A stretch of 64,000 nucleotides of DNA. Origin: an uncultured Ruminococcus sp. Lineage in GTDB: Bacteria > Bacillota > Clostridia > Oscillospirales > CAG-382. The notes below the pieces were generated by a model. It did no database searches, was not told where the DNA came from, and worked only from the letters and a program-made list of their open reading frames with translations. The stretch's first letter is position 1; the number at the start of each line of letters is the position of its first letter. The stretch spans positions 5,660 to 69,659 of the forward strand of contig CAYOCM010000001.1 of assembly GCA_964402515.1 (NCBI GenBank). Direction: 5' to 3'. Positions 6,624-30,085 of this stretch are shown here, piece after piece. The position numbers and the translations under genes were made by a program.

Positions 6624-6625
6624 TT

Positions 6626-8711: not shown

Positions 8712-9710
8712 TTATTCGCTCGGAGTATTCGATAACATATTTTCGATAAATATGCCGTATCCGCGTGTCGAATCTCCGACAAGCACATGAGTAACCGCAC
8801 CCACAAGTTTGCCGTCTTGAATTATAGGGCTGCCGGACATACCCTGCACTATGCCGCCCGCACGCTCGATAAGTTTTTTATCGGTAACGTGCAGTATGAG
8901 ATTTTTGGTGTTTGAGCCGCTGTCAAGCTCTTGTATCTCAATCTCATAACTTTGCACCCCGTCGCTGCCGAGCGTGGTCAGTATCTGTGCTTTACCCACT
9001 TTGGCGTGAGCGGTAGTCATCGCCTGACTCAATCCCGACGGAAAACGGTAATATCCGCCGTAAACGCCCGTTTCGGTATTGGCAAACAGAGTACCCTTGC
9101 GCACAGAACCGAAAACGCCCTGCAACTCACCCGGTGAATTTCGTTTGCCTTTGACTACGCCGGTTATATCGACATCTACCACGGTGCCTTCGGAAAGCGG
9201 CAGGAGCGTGCCTGTTTCACTGTCGCATATTCCGTGACCGAGACCCGCAAAAGTTCCGTCGGCAAGCACATAAGTCACGGTGCCGATACCCGCCGCCGAA
9301 TCGCGAACATACATACCGAGCCTTGCCGTGCCGCTTTCAAGATCTGTCGCGGGGGTTATTTTTGTTTTAAAGCTATCTTCGCCACGTGTGATCTCAAGCG
9401 TCATACTGTGATTGCCGTTTTCTGAGATCTGCCTTAAAAATCCGTCCGAAGATATAACCTCGCTGCCGTTTACCGCCGTAATGATATCGCCCGATTTAAT
9501 ACCCGCATCGGCTGCCGGCGAGACCAGTCCCGATGCCGTTTCGACCGCAGTTATACCCACGACCAATGCGCCTTTGGTAAAAAACTTAATACCAAAAGCC
9601 GTGCCTCCCGCATATACTCGCTCACCCAAAGCCGATGTCGGCAACGCAAATGTCGCAAGCAAAACAGCGGTCAGCAATAATGTCAATAATCTTTTTGACC
9701 TGATGCTCAT
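8712..9710 (-). CDS. spoIVB: SpoIVB peptidase (S55 serine protease with PDZ domain)
   Basis: N-terminal TM/signal segment, a PDZ-like GIKSGDIITAVNG, and the catalytic-region strings GLGHGICD and GIVQGMSGSPIIQDGKLVGAVTHVLV. The start could be ATG 9710 (AGGTGG upstream) or ATG 9737. Confidence 0.85.
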   Translation of the reverse strand: MSIRSKRLLTLLLTAVLLATFALPTSALGERVYAGGTAFGIKFFTKGALVVGITAVETASGLVSPAADAGIKSGDIITAVNGSEVISSDGFLRQISENGNHSMTLEITRGEDSFKTKITPATDLESGTARLGMYVRDSAAGIGTVTYVLADGTFAGLGHGICDSETGTLLPLSEGTVVDVDITGVVKGKRNSPGELQGVFGSVRKGTLFANTETGVYGGYYRFPSGLSQAMTTAHAKVGKAQILTTLGSDGVQSYEIEIQELDSGSNTKNLILHVTDKKLIERAGGIVQGMSGSPIIQDGKLVGAVTHVLVGDSTRGYGIFIENMLSNTPSE

Positions 9711-9863
9711 ATCCCACCTGATTTTTTGTTTTTGCATCGCTGATAATGTTTGTTGAATTAACCCTTATTATACTGTCAATTTTTTATTTCCCAAAAGCAT
9801 ATCCGCGCCATGTGCGGGCAAAAATAATAAACGGCTTAATATCAATCGGAGAGGTGCAGTTTT

Positions 9864-15800: not shown

Positions 15801-16886
15801 CGCATAACGGATGACAGCGAAATATTGAATGTTCAAGTGCCGTTTGTTGTTTCGGAGCCTCTCGCGGATGTAGACGAAAGATATGAAACACCCGAGATAT
15901 CCGCATACACCGCAACGCTGAGAGAACACTGCATAAAAGCGCTGTGCGTTACAAAAACAGGTCCAAACGGACTTGCGCTTATGGGATCTTGCGATTGGAA
16001 CGACGCTTTTTCGGAGATGCGCGGCGAAAGCATGCTGACGACGTTTATATATATAACCGCCGCAAAAATGTTTTTGCCGTATGCCGCAGAAAAAACGGAT
16101 ATTATATTTTCGATCGCCGAGAAGATGATGCAGAACGCCGAAAAACATTATGTTAACGACAGATATATACGCGCGATAGCGGATGACGGTACGGTATACG
16201 GTGACGGCAACAGCGATGAATGCGCAACAGATGCCGCCGTACAGGCATTTGCCGTCTTTGCGGGAGCAAGTCACTGCGCACAGGCCGTAAAGACCGCGTT
16301 TGATGTTTTGTGCGACAAAGAAGCACGCATAATTAAGTTGTTTCGGCCGCCGTTTGACAAAGGCAATACCCCTGCCGGCGTTATAAGAAAATATCCGCCC
16401 GGTATAAGAGAAAACGGCGGACAGTATACGCACGCGGCGGTATGGCTTGCAATGGCGGCGTTCGCCACGGGACATATCGAAATAGGAGCCTCAGTAACCT
16501 CAATGCTTGACCCGATCGCAAAAAATATGACATACGAGGGCATGAAAATATACAAAGGCGATCCGTATGTGCTTGCAGCGGATATATATTCGGCGCAAAA
16601 CGCCATAGGCAGAGCCGGTTGGAGCTGGTACACGGGCTCGGCAGGTTGGTATTATAAATTGCTGTTTGAATATTTTATGGGCATAAGGTTTTGCGGCAGC
16701 AGCATATCGGTATATCCTTGCTGTGTTTATACCTGCACCGTCAGGCGCGGCAATTGCACGCTTGATATAACCGCGGTCGATGATGATACCTTGCCGGAAT
16801 TTGACGGCAAGCAAACTGCTTTTCCGCTTTTTATGCCGGACGGTAAACACACTTTAAAGGTATCGGTGCATAAAAAAATCGGCTGA
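9864..16886 (+). CDS. Cyclic beta-1,2-glucan synthase-like giant membrane enzyme (GT84 glycosyltransferase, central alpha/alpha-barrel-like domain, C-terminal GH94 phosphorylase-like domain)
   Basis: 2340 aa. GT84-type motifs occur at about aa 285-575 (CTLDRDTYLP, SHDIAEGE, RLHRWVRGD). Several TM helices flank the GT domain. NLPPDNIQYSP...RTSPTNIGFYL lies at about aa 790. GH94-type RDQLQD...GDVMHWWH...CSDDMLWLP lies at about aa 1915. RBS GGAGAGG. Confidence 0.8.
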   Translation: MNILSLAKKAYRKICTIQKHMPRSKQGEYAWIYDNMHLINAAYKAVDSVKISAKELRFAPRIAHFCDEKKFDLPEDEILSFLSANAEAMRFSAAAVFALPAIFDACALIKTASIFETGEGCDMLANCITLLRTTPNIDCDALFEAAYLPEALLNIDEPSYALFDTDTKNRYRLAIYHIAAKKHLTDRAAYAQIFAKATANKTSVGIMLFGGKNKMSATIIYIICCVAAVIMLTITGINIFGWIMLLCVLPLFEAAFAVGDFVMSFYAKKSTLKISLKSIPDSARTAAVITTLLLGQKDDAEIFKKLALFAASNRDKNIVFCILADLADNSQKTAKDDNATVEYAKTRINELCSIYGNRFCLYLRERQYAERDGIWRAYERKRGAINEFIRYLRGENTDGVLYGNADINNIKYICTLDRDTYLPIDAVKELLGAALHPVNAPVIKDGKVVRGYGIIQPAVKTTLESAYNTRFSRLISGEAGGDVYANAIFDRSMALFGEGTFCGKGLIDIDVFYNAVLPALPEGKVLSHDIAEGEIARTLFMPETVFCDSSPATPAAYCKRLHRWVRGDVQNLFLLCSKHISAVGKYKFAANVRRVLMPVSAAAALIFGVALTSEYNALFLLFALSHIAVPLLLSVISTMISGGAFTLRRYFTRSVSALSQAIGYALWSYCFAAVYAFVNADATIRALWRMISGKKLLEWTTSVQTENSGGGALYSCVSTAAGAAMLLFAKSGIMLITAASFFAYPLAATLLSEKIGYKKSGFTENDKKILAADAAEMWRFFENRVNDSTSNLPPDNIQYSPEMRTAMRTSPTNIGFYLVSVIAARDLGLIDTSTLAKRVIKCLSSVSELKKYKGCLYNWYDLRNLLPLDNYVSSVDCGNMLCCLIALRAGLYEYLGECDELMAAIDLCTAEIQKTDLAIFYNQKRGLFSLGINVENGEKDSVCYDLYMSEFRLTAYAAVALGYADKRSWRALGRTCTSHKGYIGMLSWSGTAFEYFLPSLFLPEYKNSFLIESLEFAYMMQNEKQKNGMTGISESGYYAFDSAMNYAYRAHGVPQLALCKYDTDMSVYSPYSAYLMLCRKDREIINALNAYRDAGMQGEYGLYEANDFAVEKSGGLIVRSFMAHHIGMSIVACANVCLDDIFIARFTSDHRIAAALELLKERVPDGVILYKNNGAASKVPHEMTAQRVVPTGNFSLSEPEFALLCGNGVSAVCDSSGHIMMNFGGNMLNVCDFDKYSLLPSVIIRFSCDGEHYGCTQLHGDGRYSGEYGMRYASQINSSSAFTGKTVIRTGRSRPGFFFETSADNRKKYAVTFCFEPSMDKKRDFESHPAYSRLFLEAKYNSELNALIFTRRADKGVKCIVAAIRDKHIKYSFTTSKEGLSAYGLSTPEDLDRIIPDGRTGTCINPLCFMQTDEIRGAKTCFIVTAGENEQAALSNLVALRLEAKCSAVNEPTSDILSLCLRKCCMKRQITVYDDIPQCDISALWRHGISGDRCLIVLDASPRSDAALDAWISAYATLAHGFIRAEMAICIQENDNYNRPLEKYIRRLCNAKGLAGHLGNSGGIVILHGRHDELKPLADIYADLSKLTLPHSDWIYTDGLPTVRCFAGEKTIYDGDKNTVLPTAEGGFIQGAYIIDTSLPPPLPRTFVMANKNGFGAVITHASLGCSFDGNARESRITFAASDPFCLQSGERILCRIASTVYDLCSCADTVIYYAGHAEYKGKIFGYSYTVTTLIHPQINAKITDVCFDDTNRFDLALYIRPCSPDGIDQNTHIAAKRASIAGTEGIIFKNIPQRHAMHDFYAGGESCNVMTDLAEFIIGQKGGDDCILLKRTGGGRFIISCCEAADINRLRKTDISILCDEADKAARNFIPAADAKLPSQSLEALLKLLPIQVGVCRLQARTSFWQSGGAFGFRDQLQDCMMLVYSVPETVKNHILNAAAHQYTEGDVMHWWHEGIGGVRTKCSDDMLWLPIAVSEYIRITDDSEILNVQVPFVVSEPLADVDERYETPEISAYTATLREHCIKALCVTKTGPNGLALMGSCDWNDAFSEMRGESMLTTFIYITAAKMFLPYAAEKTDIIFSIAEKMMQNAEKHYVNDRYIRAIADDGTVYGDGNSDECATDAAVQAFAVFAGASHCAQAVKTAFDVLCDKEARIIKLFRPPFDKGNTPAGVIRKYPPGIRENGGQYTHAAVWLAMAAFATGHIEIGASVTSMLDPIAKNMTYEGMKIYKGDPYVLAADIYSAQNAIGRAGWSWYTGSAGWYYKLLFEYFMGIRFCGSSISVYPCCVYTCTVRRGNCTLDITAVDDDTLPEFDGKQTAFPLFMPDGKHTLKVSVHKKIG

Positions 16887-17770: not shown

Positions 17771-17799
17771 ATTATACCTTATTTTCAAGATAAGGTCAA
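17771..17799 (-). promoter_or_regulatory. Sigma-A type promoter for the lipoprotein gene
   Basis: Minus strand reads TTGACC, a 17-nt spacer, then TATAAT. It overlaps the stop codon of the binding-protein gene. Confidence 0.45.
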
Positions 17800-19391
17800 G
17801 GTCTTTTTTGCCTTATCTTTTTTGACAATGCAAATATAATTATGGCAATCCAAACAAAAGCAAGCACAGAAAGCAGCAATATCGACTCCAAAGGCAAAGC
17901 GCCGAATACGATACTGTGTTCGAGTTTATACTGAGAAACAGTGCTTTCAAAAGTTTCGGTGATGAACTCATCGTCTACGTTCTTTTTACGTTTGACATTT
18001 TTAACAACTGTCTCGATAAGTGCGCCCGCCGCGCTGCGCAACGACGCCGAACCGTTAAACACGGGCGTGATAAAGGTATTGTCTAAATTGTCAAGCAAAA
18101 GCTTTGATGCGTCTATCTTAATGCTGTAATACATATCGTTATCTTCGCCCGAACGCGAAAGATAATCGATATATTCGGCAGAATTTTGCGCTTTTGTCGT
18201 TACGGGCACATACCCCTCTGTTGAAGCATAGTCGATCTGCACGTCGTTTGTAAGCAGATATTGCACAAACAGCCACGACGCCATGACCTCATCGGTATCT
18301 TCTTTATTGAATATACACACCGACGGTCCCTGAGATATCATCTGCGGATTTGAAACATCATATTGAGGAATGCTCATTACGACCATTTCAAAATCGGTCA
18401 TATCATCTTCGGGGATATCGATATTGGGTGCATCGGTGCCCATCCAAGTTGCGCCGGCGGTGGAATCTATTGCAAATATGCACTGACCGGCATTGATATA
18501 GTTGCCGGGATAACCTGAAAATTTAAATGTCGAAAAACTGCCGTTTTCGGTCGCATCGGCAATTCCGAGCAATAAAGCGCGAGTTTTATCGTTAAACAGC
18601 AATATATCGCCGTCATCGGTAGAATAGCCTATACCGCTCTGCTTTGCTATCTGTATCATCATGTTGTCGGTCGACTTATATATAAACGGCAACATAACAT
18701 CTCCGCCGGTAAGTTTATATGTACCGTCGTCGTTTTTTTCGGCGGCTTTTGCCGAAACCTCAAAGACAAAATCCCAAGTCAGTGTTTCGGGCAAAGTATA
18801 GCCTAATTTTTCGACAAGAGTTTTGTTGACATAGCAAGCCTCGGTCGAACGCATAAACGGCAGACAATAATATTTGCCGTCGATGACGCATTCGGACAAA
18901 AACTGCCCTACTATCTCATCTGCGGTCGGTGCGTCAAAACCGACCTTGCTGCCGCCCATGCCGTATTCGGAATCGTAAATAAGCTCATCAAGCGGTACCA
19001 CAAGGTTTGTGCCCGTAAGATATGTTGCTATATGGTCGGGATAAGTTATGCAGACGTTGGGTGTGCTTTTTGTCGGAATATTGGTGATGACATCACTGTA
19101 TATATCTTTATAATCGCTGTAAAGTTTTAAATTTACGGTGATGTTGGGGTATATACGCTGAAAATCACTTACGGTTTTTTTATATATCTCCTGCTGGCGC
19201 TTGTTGTTGTCGTTTTTTGCCCAAAATGTTATCTCATATTCGCGAGTGGCGTCGAACGAATCGGGCATGACAAATTCAGGCAGGTCGCCTTCGCCGGCTA
19301 TGCCCGCATTATCTGCGGTCTTGCCGTGGCATGACGAAAATGACAAAACGCAAAACATCAGCGCAAACATAAACGCAAATATTTTTTTCAT
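17796..19391 (-). CDS. ABC transporter extracellular solute-binding protein (sugar family) with an N-terminal lipoprotein signal and a C-terminal TM anchor
   Basis: 531 aa. N-terminus MKKIFAFMFALMFCVLSFSSC. Family-1 SBP-like body. The C-terminus SILLLSVLAFVWIAIIIFAL followed by SKKIRQKRP is a hydrophobic helix plus a positive tail. ATGA overlap with the upstream permease gene. Confidence 0.8.
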   Translation of the reverse strand: MKKIFAFMFALMFCVLSFSSCHGKTADNAGIAGEGDLPEFVMPDSFDATREYEITFWAKNDNNKRQQEIYKKTVSDFQRIYPNITVNLKLYSDYKDIYSDVITNIPTKSTPNVCITYPDHIATYLTGTNLVVPLDELIYDSEYGMGGSKVGFDAPTADEIVGQFLSECVIDGKYYCLPFMRSTEACYVNKTLVEKLGYTLPETLTWDFVFEVSAKAAEKNDDGTYKLTGGDVMLPFIYKSTDNMMIQIAKQSGIGYSTDDGDILLFNDKTRALLLGIADATENGSFSTFKFSGYPGNYINAGQCIFAIDSTAGATWMGTDAPNIDIPEDDMTDFEMVVMSIPQYDVSNPQMISQGPSVCIFNKEDTDEVMASWLFVQYLLTNDVQIDYASTEGYVPVTTKAQNSAEYIDYLSRSGEDNDMYYSIKIDASKLLLDNLDNTFITPVFNGSASLRSAAGALIETVVKNVKRKKNVDDEFITETFESTVSQYKLEHSIVFGALPLESILLLSVLAFVWIAIIIFALSKKIRQKRP

Positions 19392-20263
19392 CCCTTGGTA
19401 CCTCCTCGCGAAACGCCCTGCATTATCTGATCGCGAAAAACAAGAAACAGAATAATGAGCGGCAACGACACGGCAACGACAGCCGCCATCATTGCGGGAA
19501 TATCCTGTCTGCCGAAACCGTTTTCACGTATATACTGTATGCCGTTTGAAACAAGATAATAATTTGGGTCATCGGTTATCAATCTGGGCCAAACATAAGA
19601 ATTCCAGCACTCTATTACTTTTAATATAACAACCGTGACTATGGTCGGGCGACTGACGGGAATCATTACCTTAAAGAGATATTTAAGGTCGGATGTGCCG
19701 TCGACCTTTGCCGCATAATACAGTTCGTCTGGTATCTGCGCAAAATTTTCTTTTAAAAGATAGATATAAAATACCGATGTCACCGAAGGCAATATCAATC
19801 CCGTAAAAGTATTACGCAAGTCAAGATTGCTGACCGTAACGAAATTGGTTATGATGACAAGCTCGTTGGGGATCATCATCAAGGCCAAAAACAACGTAAA
19901 CAAAACGTCTTTGCCTTTGAAATCAAGACGGGCAAACGCATACGCGGCAAGCACCGTGACAATAAGCATAATTGCCGTCGTAATAACGGTAAATATCAGC
20001 GTGTTGACAAAATATCCGCCGAGATCCACCGCGGTAAACGCTTTGATATAATTATCAAACGTAGGCGCGAGAGTAAACAACTGCGGTATTTTTTCGCTGT
20101 TATAGGCGCTGTATTGCTTTACGGAGGTCAAAAGCATCCAATAAAACGGAAAAAGCACTATTATCGCCCAAACGGCGAGCATTATATATGTAAATGTCTT
20201 TAAAACGTTTGAGCGTATACGGGCAGAACGTTTTATGACATCGTAATCTGTGATACCGTTCAT
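19388..20263 (-). CDS. Carbohydrate ABC transporter permease (MalG/UgpE-like)
   Basis: Six hydrophobic segments and the EAA-loop region YYAAKVDGTSDLKYLFKVMIPVSRP. ATG 20263 is preceded by GGGGGAG. Confidence 0.85.
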   Translation of the reverse strand: MNGITDYDVIKRSARIRSNVLKTFTYIMLAVWAIIVLFPFYWMLLTSVKQYSAYNSEKIPQLFTLAPTFDNYIKAFTAVDLGGYFVNTLIFTVITTAIMLIVTVLAAYAFARLDFKGKDVLFTLFLALMMIPNELVIITNFVTVSNLDLRNTFTGLILPSVTSVFYIYLLKENFAQIPDELYYAAKVDGTSDLKYLFKVMIPVSRPTIVTVVILKVIECWNSYVWPRLITDDPNYYLVSNGIQYIRENGFGRQDIPAMMAAVVAVSLPLIILFLVFRDQIMQGVSRGGTKG

Positions 20264-20282
20264 ATTACACTCCCCCTTAAAA

Positions 20283-21176
20283 TTAATAATGCACACGCTT
20301 TTTGCCGATCATAAGATTGATGACCGTTATGGTAAGAACTATTAAAAACAATATTATAGCCGCCGCCGAAGCATATGACGGCGAGCCGCCGGTCTCGCCG
20401 TAAAGCATATCATAGATATAACCGACTATGGTATTCATACCGGCAGAATTAAGGTCGGTGCCGAACAAAGCAACGGCATCGCTGTATGCTTTAAACGCGC
20501 CTATAAATCCTGTTATGACGAGATAGAAAATCATCGGCGATATCATAGGCAGGGTTATGCGGGTAAACATGCGCGCTCTCGACGTGCCGTCCACCCGCGC
20601 CGCGTTATAATAATCCTGATTGACAGATGCCAAAGCGCTTGTCAGTATCAGTATCTTAAAGGGCAAAACTATCCATATCGTATAAAGACACATTACCGTC
20701 ATTTTTGCCCAATAAGGCCCATCGATAAAATCTATGCCTTCGGCACCGAAAATCGAGATAAACGAGTTTATCAGTCCGTCGGTGTATTCTGTCTTGTCAA
20801 ACAGTATCATAAATACCAGACCTACGGCAAGCGTGTTGGTAACATACGGCAAAAAATATACCGTCTGAAAAGCTTTTTTTAGGCGCGTGATCGACGAAAG
20901 TCCGAGCGATATGAGCAATGCCAAACCGGTTGAAACCGGAACTGTTATCGCAACAAGAATAAAAGTGTTTTTAAGCGCCTGCAAAAACAGTTCGTCGTGC
21001 AGCACGTATGAATAATTATATAAACCTATGCCAAAATATGTTTGCGAGGTCATGCTGAACCCCTCTTCAAACGAGTATATCAAAACGTCGACGAGAGGGT
21101 AAACCATAAACACGCCCAAAAACAGCATTGCGGGCAAAAGATAGAGCCACGCTTTTGATAACTTTTTTCTTTCCAT
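20283..21176 (-). CDS. Carbohydrate ABC transporter permease (MalF/UgpA-like)
   Basis: EAA-loop region YNAARVDGTSRARMFTRITLPMISP. ATG 21176 is preceded by GAGG. Confidence 0.85.
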   Translation of the reverse strand: MERKKLSKAWLYLLPAMLFLGVFMVYPLVDVLIYSFEEGFSMTSQTYFGIGLYNYSYVLHDELFLQALKNTFILVAITVPVSTGLALLISLGLSSITRLKKAFQTVYFLPYVTNTLAVGLVFMILFDKTEYTDGLINSFISIFGAEGIDFIDGPYWAKMTVMCLYTIWIVLPFKILILTSALASVNQDYYNAARVDGTSRARMFTRITLPMISPMIFYLVITGFIGAFKAYSDAVALFGTDLNSAGMNTIVGYIYDMLYGETGGSPSYASAAAIILFLIVLTITVINLMIGKKRVHY

Positions 21177-21180
21177 AGCG

Positions 21181-22278
21181 TCAGACCTCAAACTTTATGC
21201 GTTCTTCCGTAACGGAATCAAACAGATAAACTTTTACGGGTTTTAATGCAAAATGCGCCTCGGGTGTCGTTACAAGTTGTACGTCTTCGGCACTGATTAT
21301 AGACCTGACGGCAGTTCCCAAAAGTTCGGGATGTTTTGAAACTACCGTAACATCTCTGCCCATGACCTCTATTTTTTGCAACTCGCATGTAAACGCACCG
21401 TCTTTATCGGGCACAAATCCCTCGGGGCGAATGCCTATGTATACATCGCCGTCGCGAACATTTTTAACATTCATAACCGGGGTATCGCCTATTATAAGTT
21501 TGCCGTCCTCTGTCCTGCCTTTAAATACGTTGATTGGCGGAGTGCCGAGGAATTTGGCAACAAACAAGTTGGCGGGATCGTCGTACACCTGTTGCGGAGA
21601 GCCGATCTGATTGACTGTGCCGTCGCGCATAACGACTATCATGTCGGATATGCTCATGGCTTCTTCTTGGTCGTGAGTGACAAACACGGTGGTTATACCG
21701 GTTTCGCGCTGAATGCGGCGTATCTCTTCGCGTGTTTGCAATCTCAGTCTTGCGTCGAGGTTTGACAAAGGTTCGTCAAGCAAAAGCACCTTGGGCAGTT
21801 TGACAAGCGCACGCGCGATGGCAACACGCTGTTGCTGACCGCCGGACATTTCGGCAGGTTTACGGTCAAGCAAGCCGTCTATTTGAACGAGTTTTGCGGC
21901 CTGTTTTGCTCTGTTGACCATTTCGATTTTAGACAGTTTGTCTTTGCCGCGTAAGTTCTGAAGCGGAAACATTATGTTTTGCAAAACATTAAGGTGAGGA
22001 TAAAGCGCATAGTTTTGAAACACCATGCCGACACCGCGGTTTTCGGGAGGCAAGTCGGTAACGTCGTCGTCGCCGAAAAATATGCGTCCCGACGTGGGTT
22101 TTAAAAGTCCGCAGATAAGATTGAGCGTAGTGCTCTTACCGCAACCCGAAGGTCCGAGCAGACCTATAAGCGTGCCGTCGGGTATCTCAAAATCAAAGTT
22201 GTTGACGGCTGTGACATCTTTTGCGTTTTTGCCTTTGCCCGGAAATTGCTTTGTCAAATTTTGCAGTATAACTTTCAT
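21181..22278 (-). CDS. Sugar ABC transporter ATP-binding protein (MalK/MsmX/UgpC-like)
   Basis: Walker A GPSGCGKST, signature MSGGQQQRVAIARAL, Walker B LLLDEPLSNLD, and a C-terminal regulatory/TOBE-like extension. Confidence 0.9.
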   Translation of the reverse strand: MKVILQNLTKQFPGKGKNAKDVTAVNNFDFEIPDGTLIGLLGPSGCGKSTTLNLICGLLKPTSGRIFFGDDDVTDLPPENRGVGMVFQNYALYPHLNVLQNIMFPLQNLRGKDKLSKIEMVNRAKQAAKLVQIDGLLDRKPAEMSGGQQQRVAIARALVKLPKVLLLDEPLSNLDARLRLQTREEIRRIQRETGITTVFVTHDQEEAMSISDMIVVMRDGTVNQIGSPQQVYDDPANLFVAKFLGTPPINVFKGRTEDGKLIIGDTPVMNVKNVRDGDVYIGIRPEGFVPDKDGAFTCELQKIEVMGRDVTVVSKHPELLGTAVRSIISAEDVQLVTTPEAHFALKPVKVYLFDSVTEERIKFEV

Positions 22279-22393: not shown

Positions 22394-22422
22394 TTGCAAA
22401 AAAAGGCGGATAATGGTATAAT
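22394..22422 (+). promoter_or_regulatory. Sigma-A type promoter of the CotH-VTC-DUF4956 operon
   Basis: TTGCAA, a 17-nt spacer, then TATAAT. Confidence 0.5.
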
Positions 22423-22485
22423 CGGGCATAAAGTTATTTTTATCTTTAACGATAATAACAAATCTCGCAAAGGCGGCGATCTTTT

Positions 22486-25400
22486 TTGTCAAACAATTAT
22501 AAATCATTGCAGAAAACCAAAAACATCACGACGGCAGTGTTGCTTATTCTGTGCCTTATGCTCAGCATAGTGCTGCTTTATATAATCCAATCCGAACTCG
22601 ACGGAGACGAGATATACTCGGGCGAATATAAAGTTCGTATAACAGAGATATGCTCGTCGAACAATTCAATCGATTATGACAAAAACGGCGATTTCAGCGA
22701 TTATATAGAGCTTTATAACTACGGCGAAACGTTTAATCTCAAAGATTTTGCGCTTACGATAAGCACAAAACGCAAAGGACAGTATACGTTCGGCGACACT
22801 ATCTTTGAATCGGGCACATATATGGTGCTGTGGCTTAACGGTGACGATGTGCCGTTTAAATTGGCGGCAAGCGGCGGCGAAACGGTATCGCTGCTTTCTC
22901 CCGACACAAAAACCGTATGTTCGGCAACAACAGAATCGCTCGAACCCGATCAGGTCATGCTGTGGTCCGAAAACGGCTATACCCTGTCGTTTGAAGCGTC
23001 TCCCGGATTCGCAAACACCGCAGAGGGCGTAGAACTGTTTCGCAAGGGCACTCCGATGGCGCAGGATAAAATAGTCATCAACGAACTTTTTATTGCCAAC
23101 AAATCGGCAATGCCCGACTTTGACGGCGAATTTTGCGATATAATAGAGCTTAAAAACATTTCAAACGAGGCAATATCGCTTGGCGATTGGTATATATCCG
23201 ATTCGTTTGACCGCAAAAGCCGAGTAAAGTTGCCCGATACGGTATTGCAGCCCGGCGAAATCAAACTGATATATGCATCGGGCAAAGACACGGTTACAGA
23301 CAGCGGCGAGTTTCACACCGATTTCAGAATATCACTCGGCGAAACGGTATATTTGTTTTATCAAAACACTTATGCAGAACTCGAGACTGCTGAATGTGAC
23401 GCAAATTATTCGCTGTCGCGTGACGGCAGCGGCAAATATACGGTGATGATTGCCACGCCCGGATTTGAAAACACCGATGAAGGATACGACGCTTTTTGCA
23501 CGTCAAGGCTTGACAACGAGTCCTCTATCGTTATAAGCGAATTGCTTTTAAAGGCAGACTTGACATCCTACGGCGGAGCGCTGCGCGACGTTGTCGAGTT
23601 GCACAACACCACGGGCACCGCAATATCGTTAAAGGGTTGGTATATTTCGGACGATCCCGACGAGCCGTATAAATACGCATTTTCGGATGTTACGGTCGAT
23701 GCGGGCGGATATTATTTGATATATTGCGAAAACAGTGCAAAAGGCAGCTCAACCGGATTTGCGCTTTCATCCGACGAATACGTATATCTTACAACTCCCG
23801 AACACAAGCAGACGGCGGCAATACCCTGCGTTTCGGCAGGCCGCGGAAAATCAAGGTCTTTGAGCGACGACGGCAGCTATTATGACGGCGAAATATCGCT
23901 CGGATATTCAAATGACGATAACGGCATTGCTCTTTACGCCAAATCGGTCAGGCCGCAGACGGTAGAAATAAGCGAAGCTGTATCACTGAATTCAAAATAT
24001 CTCGCGGGGCCTTATGGCACTTATAACGATTTTTGCGAGCTGCACAACTTAACCGATCACGATATCACGCTTGACGGTTGGTATCTGTCGGATAACCCCA
24101 AAAAGCCCAAAAAAGCAAGCCTTGACGGCATAACGATTAAAGCAGGCGAATATCTGTGCATTATTCTGTCAAAGAACGGGCTTAACATCAAATCCGGATA
24201 TAACTCGGTAGCGCTTTCGCTTTCATACGAAGGTGAAACTCTTTGTCTGTCAAACGGCGATGTTATAGTCGATTGCATGGCAATGCCGATGCTTGCCGAA
24301 AACACGTCATACGGCAGGCCCGCCGGCAAAGACGGTTTTGATATACTTGCCGAGCCTACGCCCGATAAGAGCAATTCCGACGCTTCGTTAAAGACCACCC
24401 CCACCCCGACGGCTTCGATAGAGCAAGGTGTTTATGACGGCTCAAAAACGCTTTATCTCGAGCTTTTGGGCGAAGGCAAGATATACTATACACTCGATTG
24501 CACCGAGCCGACGACAAATTCGACACCTTATACCGCGCCGATCGAAATAAGCAAGACCACTATAATACGCTGTATAGCGGTCGCGGAGGGATGCAAAGCA
24601 AGCGAAATCAAAAGCCTGTCGTATATAGTCGGTGAAGGCGATACGCTTGAGGCTGTTTCGCTTGTGTGCGATCCCGACGATCTGTTTGATTATTACACGG
24701 GCATATACGCAACCGGTCCCAATGCCAGTTCGACATATCCTTATGTCGGCGCAAATTATTGGAAACGTTGGGAACGTTACTGCACGGTCAGCTTTTTCGG
24801 CAACGACCTGACTTTTTCGGAAAACGCCGGACTCAGAATATTCGGCGGTTGGTCGCGAGCCGAAAACAAAAAATCGCTTGCGGTATTTTTCAGAGCAAAA
24901 TACGGTTGCAGTTCGTTAAACGTTCAATTGTTTGAAGATTCTGACCTTTGCTGCTATGAATCGTTTATTTTGCGCAATACGGGACAGGATGTCGGCAGAT
25001 GTTGGATGCGTGACGCTTTATTAACCAAGATCGCCGGCAAATATCTAAGCCTTGATTATCAAAACAACCGACCCGTAGTATTGTATTTGAACGGAGAATT
25101 TTGGGGGCTTTATTATATTCGTGAAAAAGCCAACGAAAATTTTATTGCGGGACATCAAAACACCACCGCAGACAGCGTTCAACTGACAAACGGCAACGGC
25201 AACTCAAACAGCGAATACAAAGCATTGATAGCTTATGTAAAAAGCCACGACCTTTCGGTTAGGGAATATTATGACTATGTTTGTTCGCAGGTAGATATAG
25301 ACAATTATATCGACTATATAATTGCCGAAATGATCATAGCAAATACCGACAACGGCAACATTAAGTTTTATAAAATAGACGGTGGCAAATGGAGATGGAT

Positions 25401-25815
25401 AATATACGACGTGGACCAATCGACATACAGCCCCGACTATAACACCGTAAAAGAGCATTTAAACCCCAACGGCACCGGCGCGGCGGATATGTTTTCAACA
25501 GCACTGATAAACGGACTGCTGAATAACAAAGAGTTTCGAGACAAGTTTTTGACGCGGTTTGCTTATCAGCTGAATGAGGTATGGACACCCGAGAGAATGA
25601 ACGCAGAGATAGATCGCTATTATTCTCTTATTAAAGATGCCCTGCCGAAAGAAAGCGCCAAATGGGGCAGATCGATAAAGTATATCGATACAAACATTAA
25701 TCGCCTGCGCACGTTTTTTAACGAGCGCAATAAAAAAATCGTGCCTATGATACAAGCACAATTCGGTCTTTCGGACAGCGAAATGCTGTCATACGGCTTT
25801 AATACGGAGGGCTGA
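22486..25815 (+). CDS. Membrane-anchored CotH-family (atypical kinase) protein with four lamin-tail-like (LTD) modules and an Fn3-associated module
   Basis: 1109 aa with a TTG start and an N-terminal TM helix TAVLLILCLMLSIVLLYII. Four modules share an ITE/INE/ISE start, then D(Y/I/V)(I/V)EL(Y/K/H)N, then GWY(I/L)SD. The module YYTLDCTEPTTNSTPYTAPIEI follows. C-terminal CotH-like strings are FILRNTGQD, LNGEFWGLYYIREK and DNGNIKFYK...WRWIIYDVDQS. Confidence 0.8.
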   Translation: MSNNYKSLQKTKNITTAVLLILCLMLSIVLLYIIQSELDGDEIYSGEYKVRITEICSSNNSIDYDKNGDFSDYIELYNYGETFNLKDFALTISTKRKGQYTFGDTIFESGTYMVLWLNGDDVPFKLAASGGETVSLLSPDTKTVCSATTESLEPDQVMLWSENGYTLSFEASPGFANTAEGVELFRKGTPMAQDKIVINELFIANKSAMPDFDGEFCDIIELKNISNEAISLGDWYISDSFDRKSRVKLPDTVLQPGEIKLIYASGKDTVTDSGEFHTDFRISLGETVYLFYQNTYAELETAECDANYSLSRDGSGKYTVMIATPGFENTDEGYDAFCTSRLDNESSIVISELLLKADLTSYGGALRDVVELHNTTGTAISLKGWYISDDPDEPYKYAFSDVTVDAGGYYLIYCENSAKGSSTGFALSSDEYVYLTTPEHKQTAAIPCVSAGRGKSRSLSDDGSYYDGEISLGYSNDDNGIALYAKSVRPQTVEISEAVSLNSKYLAGPYGTYNDFCELHNLTDHDITLDGWYLSDNPKKPKKASLDGITIKAGEYLCIILSKNGLNIKSGYNSVALSLSYEGETLCLSNGDVIVDCMAMPMLAENTSYGRPAGKDGFDILAEPTPDKSNSDASLKTTPTPTASIEQGVYDGSKTLYLELLGEGKIYYTLDCTEPTTNSTPYTAPIEISKTTIIRCIAVAEGCKASEIKSLSYIVGEGDTLEAVSLVCDPDDLFDYYTGIYATGPNASSTYPYVGANYWKRWERYCTVSFFGNDLTFSENAGLRIFGGWSRAENKKSLAVFFRAKYGCSSLNVQLFEDSDLCCYESFILRNTGQDVGRCWMRDALLTKIAGKYLSLDYQNNRPVVLYLNGEFWGLYYIREKANENFIAGHQNTTADSVQLTNGNGNSNSEYKALIAYVKSHDLSVREYYDYVCSQVDIDNYIDYIIAEMIIANTDNGNIKFYKIDGGKWRWIIYDVDQSTYSPDYNTVKEHLNPNGTGAADMFSTALINGLLNNKEFRDKFLTRFAYQLNEVWTPERMNAEIDRYYSLIKDALPKESAKWGRSIKYIDTNINRLRTFFNERNKKIVPMIQAQFGLSDSEMLSYGFNTEG

Positions 25816-25816
25816 G

Positions 25817-26485
25817 ATGGCAGACAGACGCGAAGAAAAATATTTAATAGGCTACGAAGATTTTGTGCGTATCGGTTCAAAAGCAAAAACGCTGATGCAC
25901 ATCGATCCCAACGGTGTCGACGGCAGATATTCTATCTGCTCGATATATTATGACGATGTTTATAACACGGCACTGTATGAAAAAGAAGACGGCAATGCCG
26001 TGCATACAAAGTTTCGCATACGCACATACGGCGGAGATCTCGGTTTCATCAAGCTTGAGCGCAAAACAAAAAAAGGCATTATAACGTCAAAACTTGCGTC
26101 TGCGATATCGGAAAACGAGCTTGATATATTGCTTTCGGGCGGCAGAGCCGCGGACGATTGGCAATGTTACAATCTGTCAACCGAGATGATATCGCGAGGA
26201 TTAAAACCGATATGTGCAATCAGGTATGATAGGATCGCATATTTATACGAACCTCTCAACATCAGGCTGACATTTGATATGAATATCGACAGATTGCCGC
26301 CGGACAAGATATCGTTGGCAGGCGATAATACGCGGGCGATACCCGCCCTGCCGCGCGGCGAGATAGTCATGGAGATCAAATACGACACTGCCTGCCCTTC
26401 GTTTGTGCGCAAGATATGCGCTAATTCGGGCCAACAAATATCGGTTTCAAAATATGCGCTGTGCAGAAACGCGCAAATATACTAA
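25817..26485 (+). CDS. VTC-domain protein (polyphosphate-polymerase-like triphosphate tunnel fold)
   Basis: 222 aa. The N-terminal RREEKYLI and the K/R/E-alternating beta-strand pattern (KFRIRTYG, IKLERKTKK, VMEIKYD) are typical of bacterial VTC-domain proteins. Starts 1 nt after the CotH stop, with its RBS GGAGGG inside the CotH 3' end. Confidence 0.7.
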   Translation: MADRREEKYLIGYEDFVRIGSKAKTLMHIDPNGVDGRYSICSIYYDDVYNTALYEKEDGNAVHTKFRIRTYGGDLGFIKLERKTKKGIITSKLASAISENELDILLSGGRAADDWQCYNLSTEMISRGLKPICAIRYDRIAYLYEPLNIRLTFDMNIDRLPPDKISLAGDNTRAIPALPRGEIVMEIKYDTACPSFVRKICANSGQQISVSKYALCRNAQIY

Positions 26486-26508
26486 ATATTTAATTAAAGA
26501 GGCACAAA

Positions 26509-27174
26509 ATGAGTTTTACGGACATGATCAAAAAAAGCGTCCTTGAGGGATTTTCGGCAGACGTTTCGCTGTCTGATATACTTATCTCTCTGGGCATTGC
26601 GTTTATAACGGGCTTGTTTATACTGTTGATATACCGCCTTACGACGCGCTCTGTCGGGCGCAGCCGTTCATTTGAGGTCACACTGCTTATGATGACGCCT
26701 ATCAGCGCCATGATAGTTTTGACTATCACGTCAAACCTTGCGCTTTCGCTCGGCATGGTCGGCGCACTGAGCATAATCAGGTTTCGCACGGCAATAAAAG
26801 AGCCGTCCGACACCGCATTTATGTTTTGGGCAGTTGCCGCAGGCATAACGGCAGGCGCGCATTTTTACAGCATCGCGTTGGTCGGCAGTTTGTTTATAGG
26901 CGCACTTACGTTTATTATTATGAAATTGACCGCGATTTCGTCAAGACCTTATCTGCTGATAATAAAGGCAAGCGACAAGCAGGCGTTTGACGACACCGAA
27001 AATCTGTTTGAACGTCACCATATCAAAAACAGACTTGCATCACTTACCACAAGCGGTGATCTCGACGAAGCGATATATGAGGTCGCGATCTCATCTTCGG
27101 CACGCAAGCTGATAAACGCAATAGAAAGTATCGACAACGTTGTTTCGGCATCAATAGTCGATTGCAGGAACTGA
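26509..27174 (+). CDS. DUF4956-family membrane protein
   Basis: 221 aa with about 5 hydrophobic segments, the motif LSIIRFRTAIKEPSDTAFMFWAVAAGI, and a soluble C-terminal tail of about 80 aa. Confidence 0.65.
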   Translation: MSFTDMIKKSVLEGFSADVSLSDILISLGIAFITGLFILLIYRLTTRSVGRSRSFEVTLLMMTPISAMIVLTITSNLALSLGMVGALSIIRFRTAIKEPSDTAFMFWAVAAGITAGAHFYSIALVGSLFIGALTFIIMKLTAISSRPYLLIIKASDKQAFDDTENLFERHHIKNRLASLTTSGDLDEAIYEVAISSSARKLINAIESIDNVVSASIVDCRN

Positions 27175-27177
27175 TAA

Positions 27178-27224
27178 ACAAAAAAACAAGGGTTGCCCGG
27201 CGGCAACCCTTGTTTTATTTTTTT
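27178..27224. terminator. Strong bidirectional terminator
   Basis: An A-run, then CAAGGGTTGCC-cggc-GGCAACCCTTG (11-bp stem), then a T-run. It overlaps the stop codon of the minus-strand 956-aa gene. Confidence 0.85.
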
Positions 27225-30085
27225 CCGAAAAGTGACGGCAGAAATCCGCTTTGCTTTAAATGCTCTTTTGTTATCCTGTCAATATCGTGATCGGCAAGGC
27301 GGTATTTTTTTATATCCGACTGACTGACCGATGTCAGTTTTGATACCTCATCGCATATTAATTCGAGAGCGCTTTTTGCTTTGGCGGCAAGATATCGCGC
27401 ATTCGGCGTTGCAACGGTAAATACGCACATATCAAGCATTGCAAGCAAAACATATTCCGCCGCCTTTTGCTTATAATGCAAAAACTGTTTTGAGTCGCAA
27501 ACGGGTTCGGGCACGTTTTGTCTTGCCGGGATCTCAACAGAGTCTGCGGACAAACGGTGCTTTTTTGCATAAGCGGCACGTTTTTTTAATTCTTTTTGAT
27601 AAGCGGCATCTATAAGCATATTTTGTTCAAAATAATATTCGGAAACCGAAACGCTGTAAAATGCTTTATCGCTGATGTCAAAAAAGTCGGGTTCGTTTTT
27701 GCCGTCAAGCGCCGTAAGCGTATAATAATATACCGCGTATAACGCGCCCTCTCTGCCATGACATACCGTATTGCATTCAAAATCAAAACGGCACTTTATA
27801 AACGGCGCGATATCTCGGCACACATCAAGTTCGAGAGCCTTGGCAAGCGCGCCTTTCGCGTCATGTGCAGACAGCAACCGTGCCGTATCGACCGCCGCGG
27901 AAACGGTAATAAACTGTCGGGATTCGGCCACCGTGTTTATTGCCGCCGATTTTGACAAAACGGTTTCGATCTCGCAAAGGTCATACTCGCCGTTTATCAG
28001 CAACGGTAAGGTATAATTAATAACTTTAAACAGTGCCTTGTCGCAAACGGTGTCGATATTTTCGGCAAATTCGGGATAAGCGGCGATAAAGTCGGAATAT
28101 ATGCGATACGCCTCAATACAGGCGAACGCCGTCTGTTTGCGATAGCATGCATTGATAGATTTAACCGACAGCGAGCCTATCTTTTTCAGCATAGCCTTTG
28201 AGTTATCGCCGACGATAGTCATAAGGCGCGTACCGACGGCGGCAATGTGTGTGACATCTTCGCCGAAAACCGCTGTCAATGTTCCGTCGATATATTGATG
28301 CAATGCTTTATCGTCAAAAAATCGCTTTGCATATATATCAAACAGCCCGGCATTGCCGGATTCAATCGCGGTCATTATGCGATAGACACCTTTTTGCGCA
28401 TCTTTTATATAGATATCAAAAACGGCGGCATCAAACAGCGCGCGGCATTCATCGTCGTATAAAGCGTCATACTTTGCCGCAATTGCCGAAATGTACGCTG
28501 ATGCGGCGGCACTGCGGCCCGAGAGAAACGTCTTAAAAACATCAAGCATCTCGGCAAATCCGTTTTGTTTAAGCGTCGGCAGAATATGAGTCAGCACCTC
28601 GATATTTTTTGCAAGTTTGCGTCCCGAACACGGCACCGCAAGGTCGGCAAACAATTCGGCGTTTATGCTCGAATCGTTATCGGCGATAAACAGCCGTTTA
28701 TATACCTCTGCCGCGGCGGTAGCATATTTGCCTTTTGTTACCGATTTTAACGCATTGCGTATGCGCAACTTATTTACCTCGACCTCGTCGGCGGCGATAC
28801 TGTCAAAAAACGCTATTATCTGTTTGCCGGCCACGCCCGCCTCAAGCATTGCGTCAAGTGCCCTTATAATAAGCGCACGGCAGGGCAAAGTCTCGTCTTT
28901 ATATGCTCCGAACAACTTCGGCAGTATATCGGACGGCGGCTCGGCTTTAAGCTCTGCATATTGCATAAGCAATGCGAGCATGGTAAGTTTTTCGTGCTCG
29001 GTCAAAACACTTTTTACGGTTAAAAAAGTGCGTAACACAACACCGACCTGTTTGATATCGCCCATAACATCCGACATGCTTTGTTCGTTATCTATACATC
29101 CGAAACATTTGACAAGGTCAAAAAAGCGTGCGCTGTCAAACTCGGCGTATTCATCAACCGACGATGACACACGGTATGAAAACTCGGCAAAATAATGCCT
29201 TGCACGCTCATTTGAATAAAGCGAACAAAGATAATCCAGCATGTGCTCTACGGCATAATAAGCGTCTATGTCGTTGACATAGTTTGCGTCTTTTGTCAAA
29301 AGGACAGCATTGCACACTCCCTCGGGCATAGTAAATCCCTCAAGAGCGCGCATCTTAAGCATGCAACCTTTAAACGTGTCGCCGGGCATATATCCGACGG
29401 CAAATGTTATGCGCCGTCTGACATATGCCGGCAAAACAGCGGTGAGCTTGTTAAAATATTCAAGCAACACGGCACCAAACACGCCGTGCGCACGCGACGT
29501 TATATGCGACGCGGGATATACGGCGTATATATCTTCGCCCTTTTTGGATGTAAGCAACATATAGAGCAAGCTTTTTACCGTGCGTGCACCGGCAGACGCA
29601 AACCAATCGCAAAGATTCGAAACCTGCGAAAGTTCATATACGTATTCGCCGCAATCATTCAAAGCGGTCGCATTTGTGTCGGATATCATATTGTCAAGAG
29701 GTGAATGCTCAAAAGCGGACAAAGATACGATTCCGCTGTCGAGCGCCGACATAGCAAAAAGTTCTTCTTCTGCCGAAACAACAAGGCTGTCAATAAGCGT
29801 GTCGGATTTTTCACCCGTATAGTCACGCGTTTTAAACGACATATGTGTCAAAACGGTGCTGCCGTCCGACGCAATGCGTTTAAGATATATGTCGTCTTGC
29901 TTGTCGCTGTCTATCAGGTCAAGCTGCTGTTTTGTATATTTAAGTTTTAATTTGCCTAATATTTCGGCATCTATAAACTGGCGCGAAAGCGCGCCCGACT
30001 TTGCGTATGTGTCGCTGCCGTTGCAACGGTTAAACAACGATAATCTGCCCGGCACAGACGCATAACGATGCAGATACGCCAACAA
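27215..30085 (-). CDS. Large hypothetical cytoplasmic protein (956 aa), no recognisable domain
   Basis: TTG start with a GGGGG RBS 5 nt upstream. No signal peptide or TM segment. No Walker A, HExxH or nuclease-type motif found by eye. It appears to be its own transcription unit, with a terminator at the 3' end and a divergent promoter region at the 5' end. Confidence 0.7.
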   Translation of the reverse strand: MLAYLHRYASVPGRLSLFNRCNGSDTYAKSGALSRQFIDAEILGKLKLKYTKQQLDLIDSDKQDDIYLKRIASDGSTVLTHMSFKTRDYTGEKSDTLIDSLVVSAEEELFAMSALDSGIVSLSAFEHSPLDNMISDTNATALNDCGEYVYELSQVSNLCDWFASAGARTVKSLLYMLLTSKKGEDIYAVYPASHITSRAHGVFGAVLLEYFNKLTAVLPAYVRRRITFAVGYMPGDTFKGCMLKMRALEGFTMPEGVCNAVLLTKDANYVNDIDAYYAVEHMLDYLCSLYSNERARHYFAEFSYRVSSSVDEYAEFDSARFFDLVKCFGCIDNEQSMSDVMGDIKQVGVVLRTFLTVKSVLTEHEKLTMLALLMQYAELKAEPPSDILPKLFGAYKDETLPCRALIIRALDAMLEAGVAGKQIIAFFDSIAADEVEVNKLRIRNALKSVTKGKYATAAAEVYKRLFIADNDSSINAELFADLAVPCSGRKLAKNIEVLTHILPTLKQNGFAEMLDVFKTFLSGRSAAASAYISAIAAKYDALYDDECRALFDAAVFDIYIKDAQKGVYRIMTAIESGNAGLFDIYAKRFFDDKALHQYIDGTLTAVFGEDVTHIAAVGTRLMTIVGDNSKAMLKKIGSLSVKSINACYRKQTAFACIEAYRIYSDFIAAYPEFAENIDTVCDKALFKVINYTLPLLINGEYDLCEIETVLSKSAAINTVAESRQFITVSAAVDTARLLSAHDAKGALAKALELDVCRDIAPFIKCRFDFECNTVCHGREGALYAVYYYTLTALDGKNEPDFFDISDKAFYSVSVSEYYFEQNMLIDAAYQKELKKRAAYAKKHRLSADSVEIPARQNVPEPVCDSKQFLHYKQKAAEYVLLAMLDMCVFTVATPNARYLAAKAKSALELICDEVSKLTSVSQSDIKKYRLADHDIDRITKEHLKQSGFLPSLFGKK

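Follow-up and report, generated by a model that had tools for sequence, protein, structure and literature searches.

A three-gene module of an uncultured Ruminococcus unites genes for a VTC-family tunnel protein, a DUF4956 membrane protein and an exported CotH protein

The window analysed in this study, a 64,000-nucleotide stretch of contig CAYOCM010000001.1 from an uncultured Ruminococcus sp., contains a trio of co-oriented genes spanning 22486-27174 that encode a CotH protein with a transmembrane (TM) anchor, a VTC-domain protein and a DUF4956 protein. As delimited by open reading frame (ORF) calls and assigned with Pfam, gene 1 (22486-25815, + strand) starts with TTG and encodes a protein of 1109 aa, gene 2 (25817-26485, +) encodes a soluble triphosphate tunnel metalloenzyme (TTM) protein of 222 aa, and gene 3 (26509-27174, +) encodes a membrane protein of 221 aa. 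The ATG of gene 2 lies 1 nt past the TGA of gene 1, with its ribosome-binding site (RBS, GGAGGG) within gene 1, and gene 3 follows 23 nt after gene 2 with the RBS AAAGAGG. An earlier reading of this DNA from the letters alone, hereafter the original prediction, had given the same coordinates, lengths and overlapping signals exactly, and Pfam returned all the domains that it had named, which were CotH, four lamin-tail domains (LTD), an Fn3-associated module, VTC and DUF4956.

The trio was bounded by a promoter and a strong bidirectional intrinsic terminator, both of which had been proposed and were recovered in our scans. The sigma-70-type promoter site (TTGCAA-17-TATAAT with a TG-extended -10; 22394-22422, +) was the top-scoring candidate on the + strand in a consensus scan (10/12). 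The upstream region was aligned with those of the two closest relatives (L001 and L002), both metagenome-assembled genomes (MAGs) of 'uncultured Ruminococcus sp.'. The -35 box and its upstream flank, TGnTAnAAT, the AAGGnGG RBS and the TTG start were kept while the spacers had diverged, constituting a phylogenetic footprint that supported both the promoter and the unusual TTG start. The terminator (27183-27216, both strands), identified by a terminator scan and direct reading of the sequence, forms a hairpin with a 15-bp stem including 7 G-C pairs and with T-runs on either strand, and the same hairpin closes the trio operon and a convergent ORF of 956 aa. The locus is predicted to be a self-contained, co-transcribed three-gene module.

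The C-terminal region of the gene 1 product (aa 783-1083) matched the CotH domain (PF08757) over profile positions 1-320 of 322 with an E-value of 1.4e-46 and 159.9 bits against the cut-off of 23.8, and this score together with the homology to the Bacillus cereus CotH structure 5JD9 placed the protein in the CotH family. The region preceding it carried four LTD stretches (Pfam E 1.2e-38), delimited by self-jackhmmer to aa 44-146, 191-298, 341-445 and 490-593, and a CHB_HEX_C_1/Fn3_assoc (CHB) module detected by Pfam at aa ~647-713. Hydropathy and charge bias indicated a lone TM segment at aa 16-34. As three Lys precede this segment and a net acidic stretch follows it, the protein is predicted to have an N-in signal anchor with the remaining ~1075 residues outside the cell.

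A search of the PDB with the lone CotH-domain sequence gave no match and a profile was needed, with which B. cereus CotH 5JD9 was aligned at E 5e-11. The putative catalytic residue D955 in 'NTDNGN' (nt 25348-25350, +) and the putative metal-binding residue D975 in 'YDVD' (nt 25408-25410, +) fell on the aspartates of 'NFD' and 'WD', respectively, in the B. cereus protein. Since these two aspartates are 23 residues apart, as are D228 and D251 of B. subtilis CotH, we infer that D955 and D975 are the counterparts of D228 (catalytic) and D251 (metal-binding). Mutation of either D228 or D251 inactivates B. subtilis CotH, which is a Ser kinase of the spore coat in Bacillus (PMC7821199). Both D955 and D975 were invariant in the CotH family alignment, and among the 121 module-linked CotH ORFs from the first two sets of loci described below, they were found in 118/119 and 119/119, respectively.

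The gene 1 protein shares the Pfam domain and the two equated aspartates with Bacillus CotH (5JD9/5JDA). The latter is a single domain of ~360 aa functioning in the mother cell with ATP on the substrates CotB and CotG, whereas the former is membrane-anchored, predicted to be extracytoplasmic and enlarged by ~740 aa of additional modules. Cellulosomal proteins of Clostridium thermocellum include CotH and LTD-LTD-Fn3-CotH proteins (PMC6083626). These proteins (CseP Cthe_0044, and Cthe_0239 with the LTD-LTD-Fn3-CotH architecture) resemble gene 1 in the extracellular LTD...Fn3/CHB...CotH arrangement and in their occurrence in a fibre-degrading member of the Clostridia, although gene 1 differs from them in the TM anchor, in the number of LTD modules and in forming an operon with VTC and DUF4956 genes.

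Gene 2 belongs to the VTC family (PF09359) by the curated Pfam threshold, with 92.3 bits against the cut-off of 23 (E 4.4e-26; aa 4-215, profile positions 2-229 of 235). The protein lacks an SPX domain and any TM segment, the latter leading to its prediction as a cytoplasmic protein. While the lone sequence found no relatives in the PDB, the family profile reached yeast Vtc4 at E 3e-7, and the alignment equated R67/R69 with R264/R266 and E81/K83 with E279/K281 of Vtc4. R67, R69 and K83 were invariant across the VTC family alignment. The invariant positions as a whole (E6-E7-K8, K65-R67-R69, E81-K83-K85, Y137-R139, R150-T152-D154, E186-K188 and S209-S211-K212) alternated in the pattern typical of tunnel strands. 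A catalytically dead form of Vtc4 is the R264A/R266A/E426N variant (PMC9911596). The mapped catalytic residues (equivalents of Vtc4 R264/R266/K281, and D955/D975 in CotH) were conserved; a lack of such residues would have refuted the original prediction by its own terms.

The AlphaFold model of gene 2 (pLDDT 91.6, pTM 0.87) was compared with the PDB by Foldseek, in which the 13 best matches were all TTM domains of VTC complexes. Vtc4 (3g3r) was the top match with E 2e-12 and a query-normalized TM-score (TMq) of 0.76, followed by YgiF and an archaeal TTM protein with TMq of ~0.55-0.57. The modelled closed tunnel fold is nearer to Vtc4 than to other TTM/CYTH enzymes. From its sequence and model, gene 2 most likely encodes an ATP-dependent polyphosphate (polyP) polymerase of the Vtc4 type. 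An exhaustive profile search collected 8795, 4140 and 813 clusters of VTC homologues at 50% identity with E ≤ 1e-3, ≤ 1e-10 and ≤ 1e-30, respectively. Many of the homologues (P0302, P0303, P0406 and others) possessed N-terminal extensions of 140-400 aa that were low-complexity and rich in K/R/E/P. Rosetta-stone fusions of VTC were sought among the longer homologues, which had only such extensions and no Pfam domain in them.

Gene 3 matched DUF4956 (PF16316) with 46.6 bits above the cut-off of 30.6 (E 4.1e-12), as did all of the 35 aligned homologues with this Pfam family. The model (pLDDT 72) contained about five TM helices (aa 21-46, 53-72, 76-93, 99-116 and 120-142) followed by a C-terminal domain (aa 146-218) with the beta-alpha-beta-beta-alpha-beta topology of the ACT fold, for which Foldseek found ACT domains (E 1e-4) and the C-terminal domain of MgtC, 2LQJ (E 4e-3). 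The loops at aa 43-56 and 91-101 were rich in K/R, and the ACT domain is predicted from these positive loops to be cytoplasmic. The strongest conservation in the family was located in the TM3-loop-TM4 hairpin, where R91, R93 and K97 were invariant. The topology suggested by these analyses has CotH and LTD outside and VTC and the ACT domain inside, the sides of CotH/LTD and of VTC being those that the original prediction had expected.

The modelled plan of ~5 TM helices and a cytoplasmic ACT-like domain, as well as the size, is similar to that of MgtC/SapB/YhiD proteins. Gene 3 was colinear with the NCBIfam MgtC/SapB model PRK09977 at E 1.7e-6, but its score of 27.9 bits was far below the cut-off of 214, so that it was not assigned to MgtC/SapB. 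The match to Pfam MgtC was at E 0.059, and 7/35 family members gave a match with the best E of 0.0024. The relation of DUF4956 to MgtC is best described at the sequence level as remote homology, not membership, and MgtC, a regulator of F-ATPase and PhoR, has no link to VTC.

The conservation of the trio was investigated with three sets of related loci, 233 in total, collected from contigs of one genome per species. The first set, obtained with the VTC alignment as the query, consisted of 73 orthologous loci, all from gut or rumen Clostridia MAGs, with VTC identities from 82% down to ~35%. DUF4956 was located immediately after VTC in 73/73, and the ~1100-aa LTD-CHB-CotH gene immediately before VTC in 71 of the 72 loci with upstream DNA, this order holding down to ~40% VTC identity and the exception being L073. 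The flanking genes had unrelated housekeeping functions (AI-2E transporter, DNA polymerase III delta', pantothenate-kinase-like protein, FAD oxidoreductases and MalK), and the constancy of the trio amid these flanks indicated that it travels as a unit.

The second, broader set was obtained with the DUF4956 alignment as the query and comprised the best 80 of at least 598 motif matches. It covered Paenibacillus, Clostridium, C. difficile, Butyrivibrio, Trichococcus, Schinkia, Cytobacillus, Christensenellaceae, Tenericutes, a Muribaculaceae MAG and a Udaeobacter MAG. VTC was found within 2 kb of DUF4956 in 79/80 loci, immediately upstream in 78 and ~2 kb downstream in L155, while the contig of the remaining locus begins at DUF4956. 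The median gap between VTC and DUF4956 was 21 nt in 151 loci of the first two sets. An exported partner adjoined the pair in at least 69 of 73 assessable loci, the other seven contigs being too short for a call; it was CotH in 57 and a beta-helix protein of the Cthe_2159 family in 12, and four loci had neither. CotH occurred either as the LTD type upstream or as a type of ~600-740 aa downstream. The Cthe_2159-family proteins, found in loci without CotH (L132:10713-12617, L157:10647-12770, L084, L092, L124, L136, L138, L139, L147, L148, L150 and L153), were ~570-780 aa long and encoded directly downstream in 10 loci and upstream on the opposite strand in L150 and L153; the one example tested with Pfam matched at E 1e-100. 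These proteins, of a carbohydrate-binding beta-helix family, seem to stand in for CotH as the third partner of the module. Nearly all third partners in this set had an N-terminal hydrophobic segment.

An OmpR-type response regulator and a HisKA kinase adjoined the pair in 32/80 loci of the second set (for example, L132:6794-8916, L143:6818-9071 and L150:7081-9085). These were regarded as generic OmpR/HisKA pairs and not as PhoPR, since no NCBIfam equivalog cut-off was reached. No two-component pair adjoins the trio operon in the window.

The third set was obtained with the DUF4956 protein of the metagenome locus L076 as the query and comprised 80 of at least 486 matches (L158-L237). It extended to CPR/Patescibacteria, KSB1, Planctomycetota, Bacteroidota, Verrucomicrobiota, Chloroflexota, Nitrospinaceae, Omnitrophota, Acidimicrobiia and Spirochaetales among the bacteria, and to Methanogenium marinum DSM 15558 and two 'archaeon' MAGs among the archaea. 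VTC was present within ~4 kb in 69/80 loci and a CotH-type partner in 71/80. The commonest order was DUF4956, a gene encoding ~880 aa and VTC, as seen in Methanogenium marinum (L197:8615-11302), L232:8618-11221, L236:8630-11281 and ~50 further loci. The middle genes tested with Pfam had CotH in the N-terminal half (E 1e-7 to 2e-12), and 3/6 of those tested had a right-handed beta-helix/pectate-lyase-like region in the C-terminal half. The two alternative partners of the Firmicute loci are thereby fused in these proteins, and this sequence link of the Rosetta-stone type suggests a process shared by CotH and the beta-helix.

Several individual loci showed further arrangements. L164 contained two tandem DUF4956-VTC pairs (7971-11924), and L111 several CotH genes around one pair, one of them encoding 1633 aa (3931-12408). 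In L163, from a KSB1 MAG, a gene for a calcineurin-like metallophosphoesterase (8615-9508) was located between DUF4956 and VTC, and its product could be a phosphate-polymer hydrolase partner. In L077 (5271-17845), a CotH protein with a sorting tail of the type IX secretion system was encoded among repeated MBOAT/AlgX pairs of the kind associated with O-acetylation of polysaccharides, and neither VTC nor DUF4956 was in the vicinity.

Across the 233 loci, VTC and DUF4956 were nearly always linked and usually adjacent, and an exported partner was nearly always beside them. The association of the three genes, for which the original prediction had asked co-occurrence statistics, was far beyond chance; the order was kept in 71/72 loci of the first set and the pair recurred, beside a CotH-type or beta-helix partner, in the two further sets of 80 loci. 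VTC and DUF4956 constitute a near-obligate pair. Pel genes were found near the pair in 0/73 loci of the first set and 7/80 of the second, and no polysaccharide gene recurred in the flanks of the related loci.

The gene set itself had been described before, so that, taken strictly, the trio does not count as the undescribed system for which the original prediction had named it the top candidate. In streptococci and clostridia, pelDEA(DA)FG is directly joined by an accessory group made up of the genes cotH, poly-phosphate polymerase, DUF4956 and DUF4832, a variant of which occurs in bifidobacteria (Whitfield et al. 2020, PMC7112168 / 10.1101/768473). A Pel-linked example retrieved here was L075 of Bacillus paramycoides, with the order pelF-pelG-CotH-CotH-VTC-DUF4956-DUF4832. 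In the NELoc-2 locus of C. perfringens, VTC genes are each followed by a ~225-aa membrane protein annotated as 'tubulin/FtsZ' and then by CotH, beside a chitin-synthase-like gene (Lepp et al. 2010, PMC2879425); judging from size and position, the membrane proteins are probably DUF4956. In Streptococcus intermedius, all the three genes (SIR_1592-1594) have been deleted (mBio 2025, PMC12345266). The phenotypes were weak: the DUF4956 deletion increased Pel and the CotH deletion decreased it, with aggregation lowered by more than 50% in both cases, for the DUF4956 strain in artificial sputum medium (PMC12345266). The authors noted the phosphate theme, left the mechanism open and reported having met no case of this synteny away from the Pel locus (PMC12345266), the last point being contradicted by the Pel-linked fractions of 0/73 and 7/80 observed here. 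The part of the novelty claim that stood is biochemical, as the literature on the gene set contained no biochemical activity for any of the three proteins.

The trio of the window resembles the Gram-positive pel accessory group and NELoc-2 in the adjacency of the same three families and in the predicted secretion of CotH, and DUF4956 of the pel group has been described as an MgtC-like TM domain with ACT, as in gene 3. It was not counted as a member of the pel accessory group, since neither pelDEA(DA)FG contiguity nor DUF4832 was found among the ORFs scanned. It also differs in having CotH first in the order, and its CotH protein differs in the length of 1109 aa, the TM anchor, the four LTD modules and the CHB module. 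The window thus adds a stand-alone, LTD-decorated instance of the trio. What is new relative to the published work is that VTC and DUF4956 are near-obligate partners, that the third partner is always exported and is CotH or a beta-helix protein, interchangeable or fused, and that the module is mostly independent of Pel and distributed over many bacterial phyla and archaea.

How these proteins might work together can be considered by analogy to the eukaryotic VTC complex, in which polyP is synthesised from ATP on one side of a membrane and led across by way of the complex's own TM domains. To our knowledge, this complex is the only characterised system composed of a Vtc4-like tunnel enzyme and a dedicated membrane protein. 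The yeast complex (Vtc4/Vtc3/Vtc1; 3G3Q, 7YTJ and 8I6V) and gene 2 have in common PF09359, the predicted tunnel fold and the equivalents of R264/R266/K281, and in both systems the tunnel enzyme is obligatorily tied to an integral membrane protein. On the other hand, the trio has no SPX domain, its tunnel domain is a separate 222-aa protein unfused to the membrane domain, the membrane partner has an MgtC-like plan of ~5 TM helices and ACT instead of the 3-TM module of Vtc1 type, and what lies beyond the membrane is the outside of the cell, not the lumen of a vacuole, with an exported CotH or beta-helix protein added to the set. The trio, known here from sequence and models, was not classified as a VTC complex because of the absence of SPX and the Vtc1-type 3-TM module, while a similar way of working is possible; set against the systems that have been characterised, the trio reads best as a putative variant of the VTC-type polyP machinery with an added extracytoplasmic arm.

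The explanation that we tentatively prefer, as possible rather than probable, is that the module is a prokaryotic analogue of the eukaryotic VTC complex, in which polyP is made at the membrane and supplied to the extracytoplasmic CotH or beta-helix partner. The cytoplasmic VTC protein would dock on DUF4956 on the cytoplasmic side of the membrane and make polyP from ATP there, and the product would be passed or presented to the outside. The anchored LTD4-CHB-CotH protein would then use or organise polyP outside the cell, either as a kinase or phosphotransferase with polyP as the donor where ATP is absent, or by fixing the polyanion to a cell-surface polymer. This explanation is supported by the near-obligate pairing of VTC and DUF4956 with a third partner that is always exported, by the close packing of the operon, whose translation signals overlap and whose promoter footprint is conserved, by the conservation of the mapped VTC and CotH residues, by the match of the VTC model to Vtc4, by the predicted topology, and by the halved aggregation and altered Pel levels upon deletion of DUF4956 or CotH in S. 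intermedius. The original prediction had likewise pictured a membrane-associated machine handling a phosphate polymer or donor for an outside kinase; that picture is still the most economical reading.

Several observations weigh against this proposal. No change was reported for the S. intermedius VTC mutant, unlike the other two mutants (PMC12345266), which fits poorly with a simple linear pathway. Regarding the enzyme, the counterparts of Vtc4 E426 and K458, and also of K200, could not be aligned, and sub-profiles of the N- and C-terminal strands gave no PDB match at E ≤ 10. K200 and K458 are presumably catalytic tunnel residues of Vtc4. The invariant E6-x-K8, E186-x-K188 and S211-K212 of the VTC family are likely the counterparts of these unaligned residues, E186 and K212 being the probable equivalents of E426 and K458. 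Regarding the membrane protein, the TM domain of gene 3 had no structural match in the PDB and its model was only moderately confident. MgtC-family proteins, cited in PMC12345266 as regulators of PhoR and the F-ATPase, are known to regulate by binding membrane proteins and are not known as channels. Regarding the third partner, the CotH HMM left the catalytic region of the fusion proteins of the third set unaligned, and a profile-profile comparison gave a probability of only 30%. In this low-confidence alignment, the first CotH Asp was seemingly lost, an invariant His stood two residues upstream and the second Asp was kept, in which case the role that the third partner has conserved may be other than kinase chemistry. 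We also know of no enzyme with a protein-kinase-like fold that uses polyP as a donor. In the literature searched, no enzymatic activity was on record for a bacterial VTC protein, and none is known to us for DUF4956 or for CotH linked to the module; searches for bacterial VTC activity, extracellular polyP in Gram-positive bacteria and the action of CotH on polysaccharides gave nothing decisive.

A different role, unlikely in our estimation but partly overlapping with the polyP proposal because a glycan could be the CotH substrate, is that of an accessory set modifying or regulating an exopolysaccharide or wall polymer. Here the exported CotH protein would phosphorylate or bind a glycan such as Pel, and VTC-DUF4956 would regulate or energise the process. 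The contiguity with pelDEA(DA)FG in streptococci, clostridia and bifidobacteria (10.1101/768473) and in Bacillus (L075), the Pel and aggregation phenotypes in S. intermedius, and the chitin-synthase-like glycosyltransferase beside the NELoc-2 genes all point in this direction, as do the CHB_HEX_C_1 module in gene 1, the pectate-lyase-like nature of the alternative beta-helix partners and the CotH gene amid the MBOAT/AlgX acetylation pairs in L077. The Pel linkage was, however, limited to 7/80 broader loci and absent from the 73 orthologous ones, and no polysaccharide gene recurred in the flanks. No Pel or other exopolysaccharide synthase, glycosyltransferase or DUF4832 was found among the larger ORFs scanned in the 64-kb window, and no glycan-kinase activity is known for CotH.

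It is quite improbable, in our judgement, that the pair serves intracellular phosphate or polyP homeostasis or signalling, with VTC as a membrane-tethered polymerase or triphosphate sensor, DUF4956 as an MgtC-like ACT regulator and the exported partner as a merely co-regulated adhesin or plant-fibre binder, nothing crossing the membrane. ACT domains are ligand sensors, and regulation of PhoR and F-ATPase by MgtC-family proteins (cited in PMC12345266) would suit such a role. So would the OmpR-type two-component systems adjoining 32/80 loci, even though these reached no PhoR/PhoB equivalog cut-off. A fibre-binding partner would be consistent with the cellulosomal CotH and LTD-LTD-Fn3-CotH proteins of C. 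thermocellum (PMC6083626), with the binding of cellulose and pectin by Cthe_2159 (10.1101/401869) and with the host being a member of the gut/rumen Clostridia, and the VTC deletion was indeed phenotypically uncoupled from those of CotH and DUF4956. Mere co-regulation, however, leaves unexplained why the exported partner stays adjacent, often with translational coupling, across phyla and through permutations of the gene order. The CotH catalytic residues are also strongly constrained in the Firmicute forms, which would be needless for a pure adhesin.

A classical spore-coat kinase using mother-cell ATP on coat proteins, with the downstream genes incidental, is very improbable and was rejected for gene 1: CotH is such a kinase in Bacillus (PMC7821199) and the SpoIVB gene (peptidase S55 and PDZ; 8712-9737, -) in the window marks the host as an endospore-forming Firmicute, but the promoter is sigma-70/sigmaA-like and not sigmaE- or sigmaK-like, the N-in TM anchor and 740 aa of LTD/CHB modules are absent from Bacillus CotH, the linkage of CotH to VTC-DUF4956 is near-universal, and the trio occurs also in non-sporulating streptococci, bifidobacteria, Tenericutes, Bacteroidota, Planctomycetota, CPR bacteria and archaea.

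The polyP proposal is of wider relevance. PPK1 and PPK2 are the enzymes to which polyP synthesis in prokaryotes is ascribed at present, and the VTC-type polymerase is regarded as an invention of the eukaryotes. A review in 2023 surveyed the distribution of VTC-type polymerases only among eukaryotes (PMC10657179). The present analysis revealed a large prokaryotic VTC family (4140 clusters at E ≤ 1e-10) nearly always paired with a membrane protein and an exported partner. In its boldest form, which we put forward as doubtful, the proposal would make VTC-DUF4956 a third, hitherto unrecognised prokaryotic polyP route beside PPK1 and PPK2, the bacterial and archaeal counterpart of the VTC complex and possibly a relative of its ancestor, extruding polyP to the cell surface for the CotH or beta-helix partner, which would use it as a phosphodonor in place of ATP or as a structural polyanion in the envelope or matrix. 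If the pair does make and export polyP, it would represent a new polyP pathway in prokaryotes and, among them, a plausible relative of the VTC machinery of eukaryotes. It would also explain the supply of a phosphodonor to extracytoplasmic kinase-fold enzymes, including the ATP-free work of cellulosomal CotH, and would give a mechanistic handle on links to biofilm and virulence such as Pel-dependent streptococcal aggregation and C. perfringens NELoc-2. The presence of the module in culturable Paenibacillus, C. difficile, Bacillus paramycoides and Trichococcus makes the hypothesis directly testable.

The genes surrounding the trio in the window were also inspected. The convergent 956-aa ORF downstream (27215-30085, -) had no Pfam, NCBIfam or PADLOC match and was absent from all 233 related loci, and was therefore rejected as a fourth component. 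As no PADLOC model matched the three trio proteins either, an anti-phage defence system was rejected. The NCBIfam scan gave no name for the CotH and VTC proteins. A divergent four-gene operon for ATP-binding cassette (ABC) sugar uptake is located upstream (17796-22278, -), and past it lies a gene for a 2340-aa protein (9864-16886, +) with GH94 catalytic and supersandwich domains, DUF3131 and a glucoamylase-like region, resembling an enzyme of the beta-1,2-glucan type. Neither the giant GH94 protein nor the ABC transporter was accepted as a functional partner of the trio, their synteny being kept only in the closest relatives. Elsewhere in the window, a gene at 43518-45113 (-) encodes a leucine-rich-repeat (LRR) protein of 530 aa that matches several LRR families, including the EndoS-type LRR.

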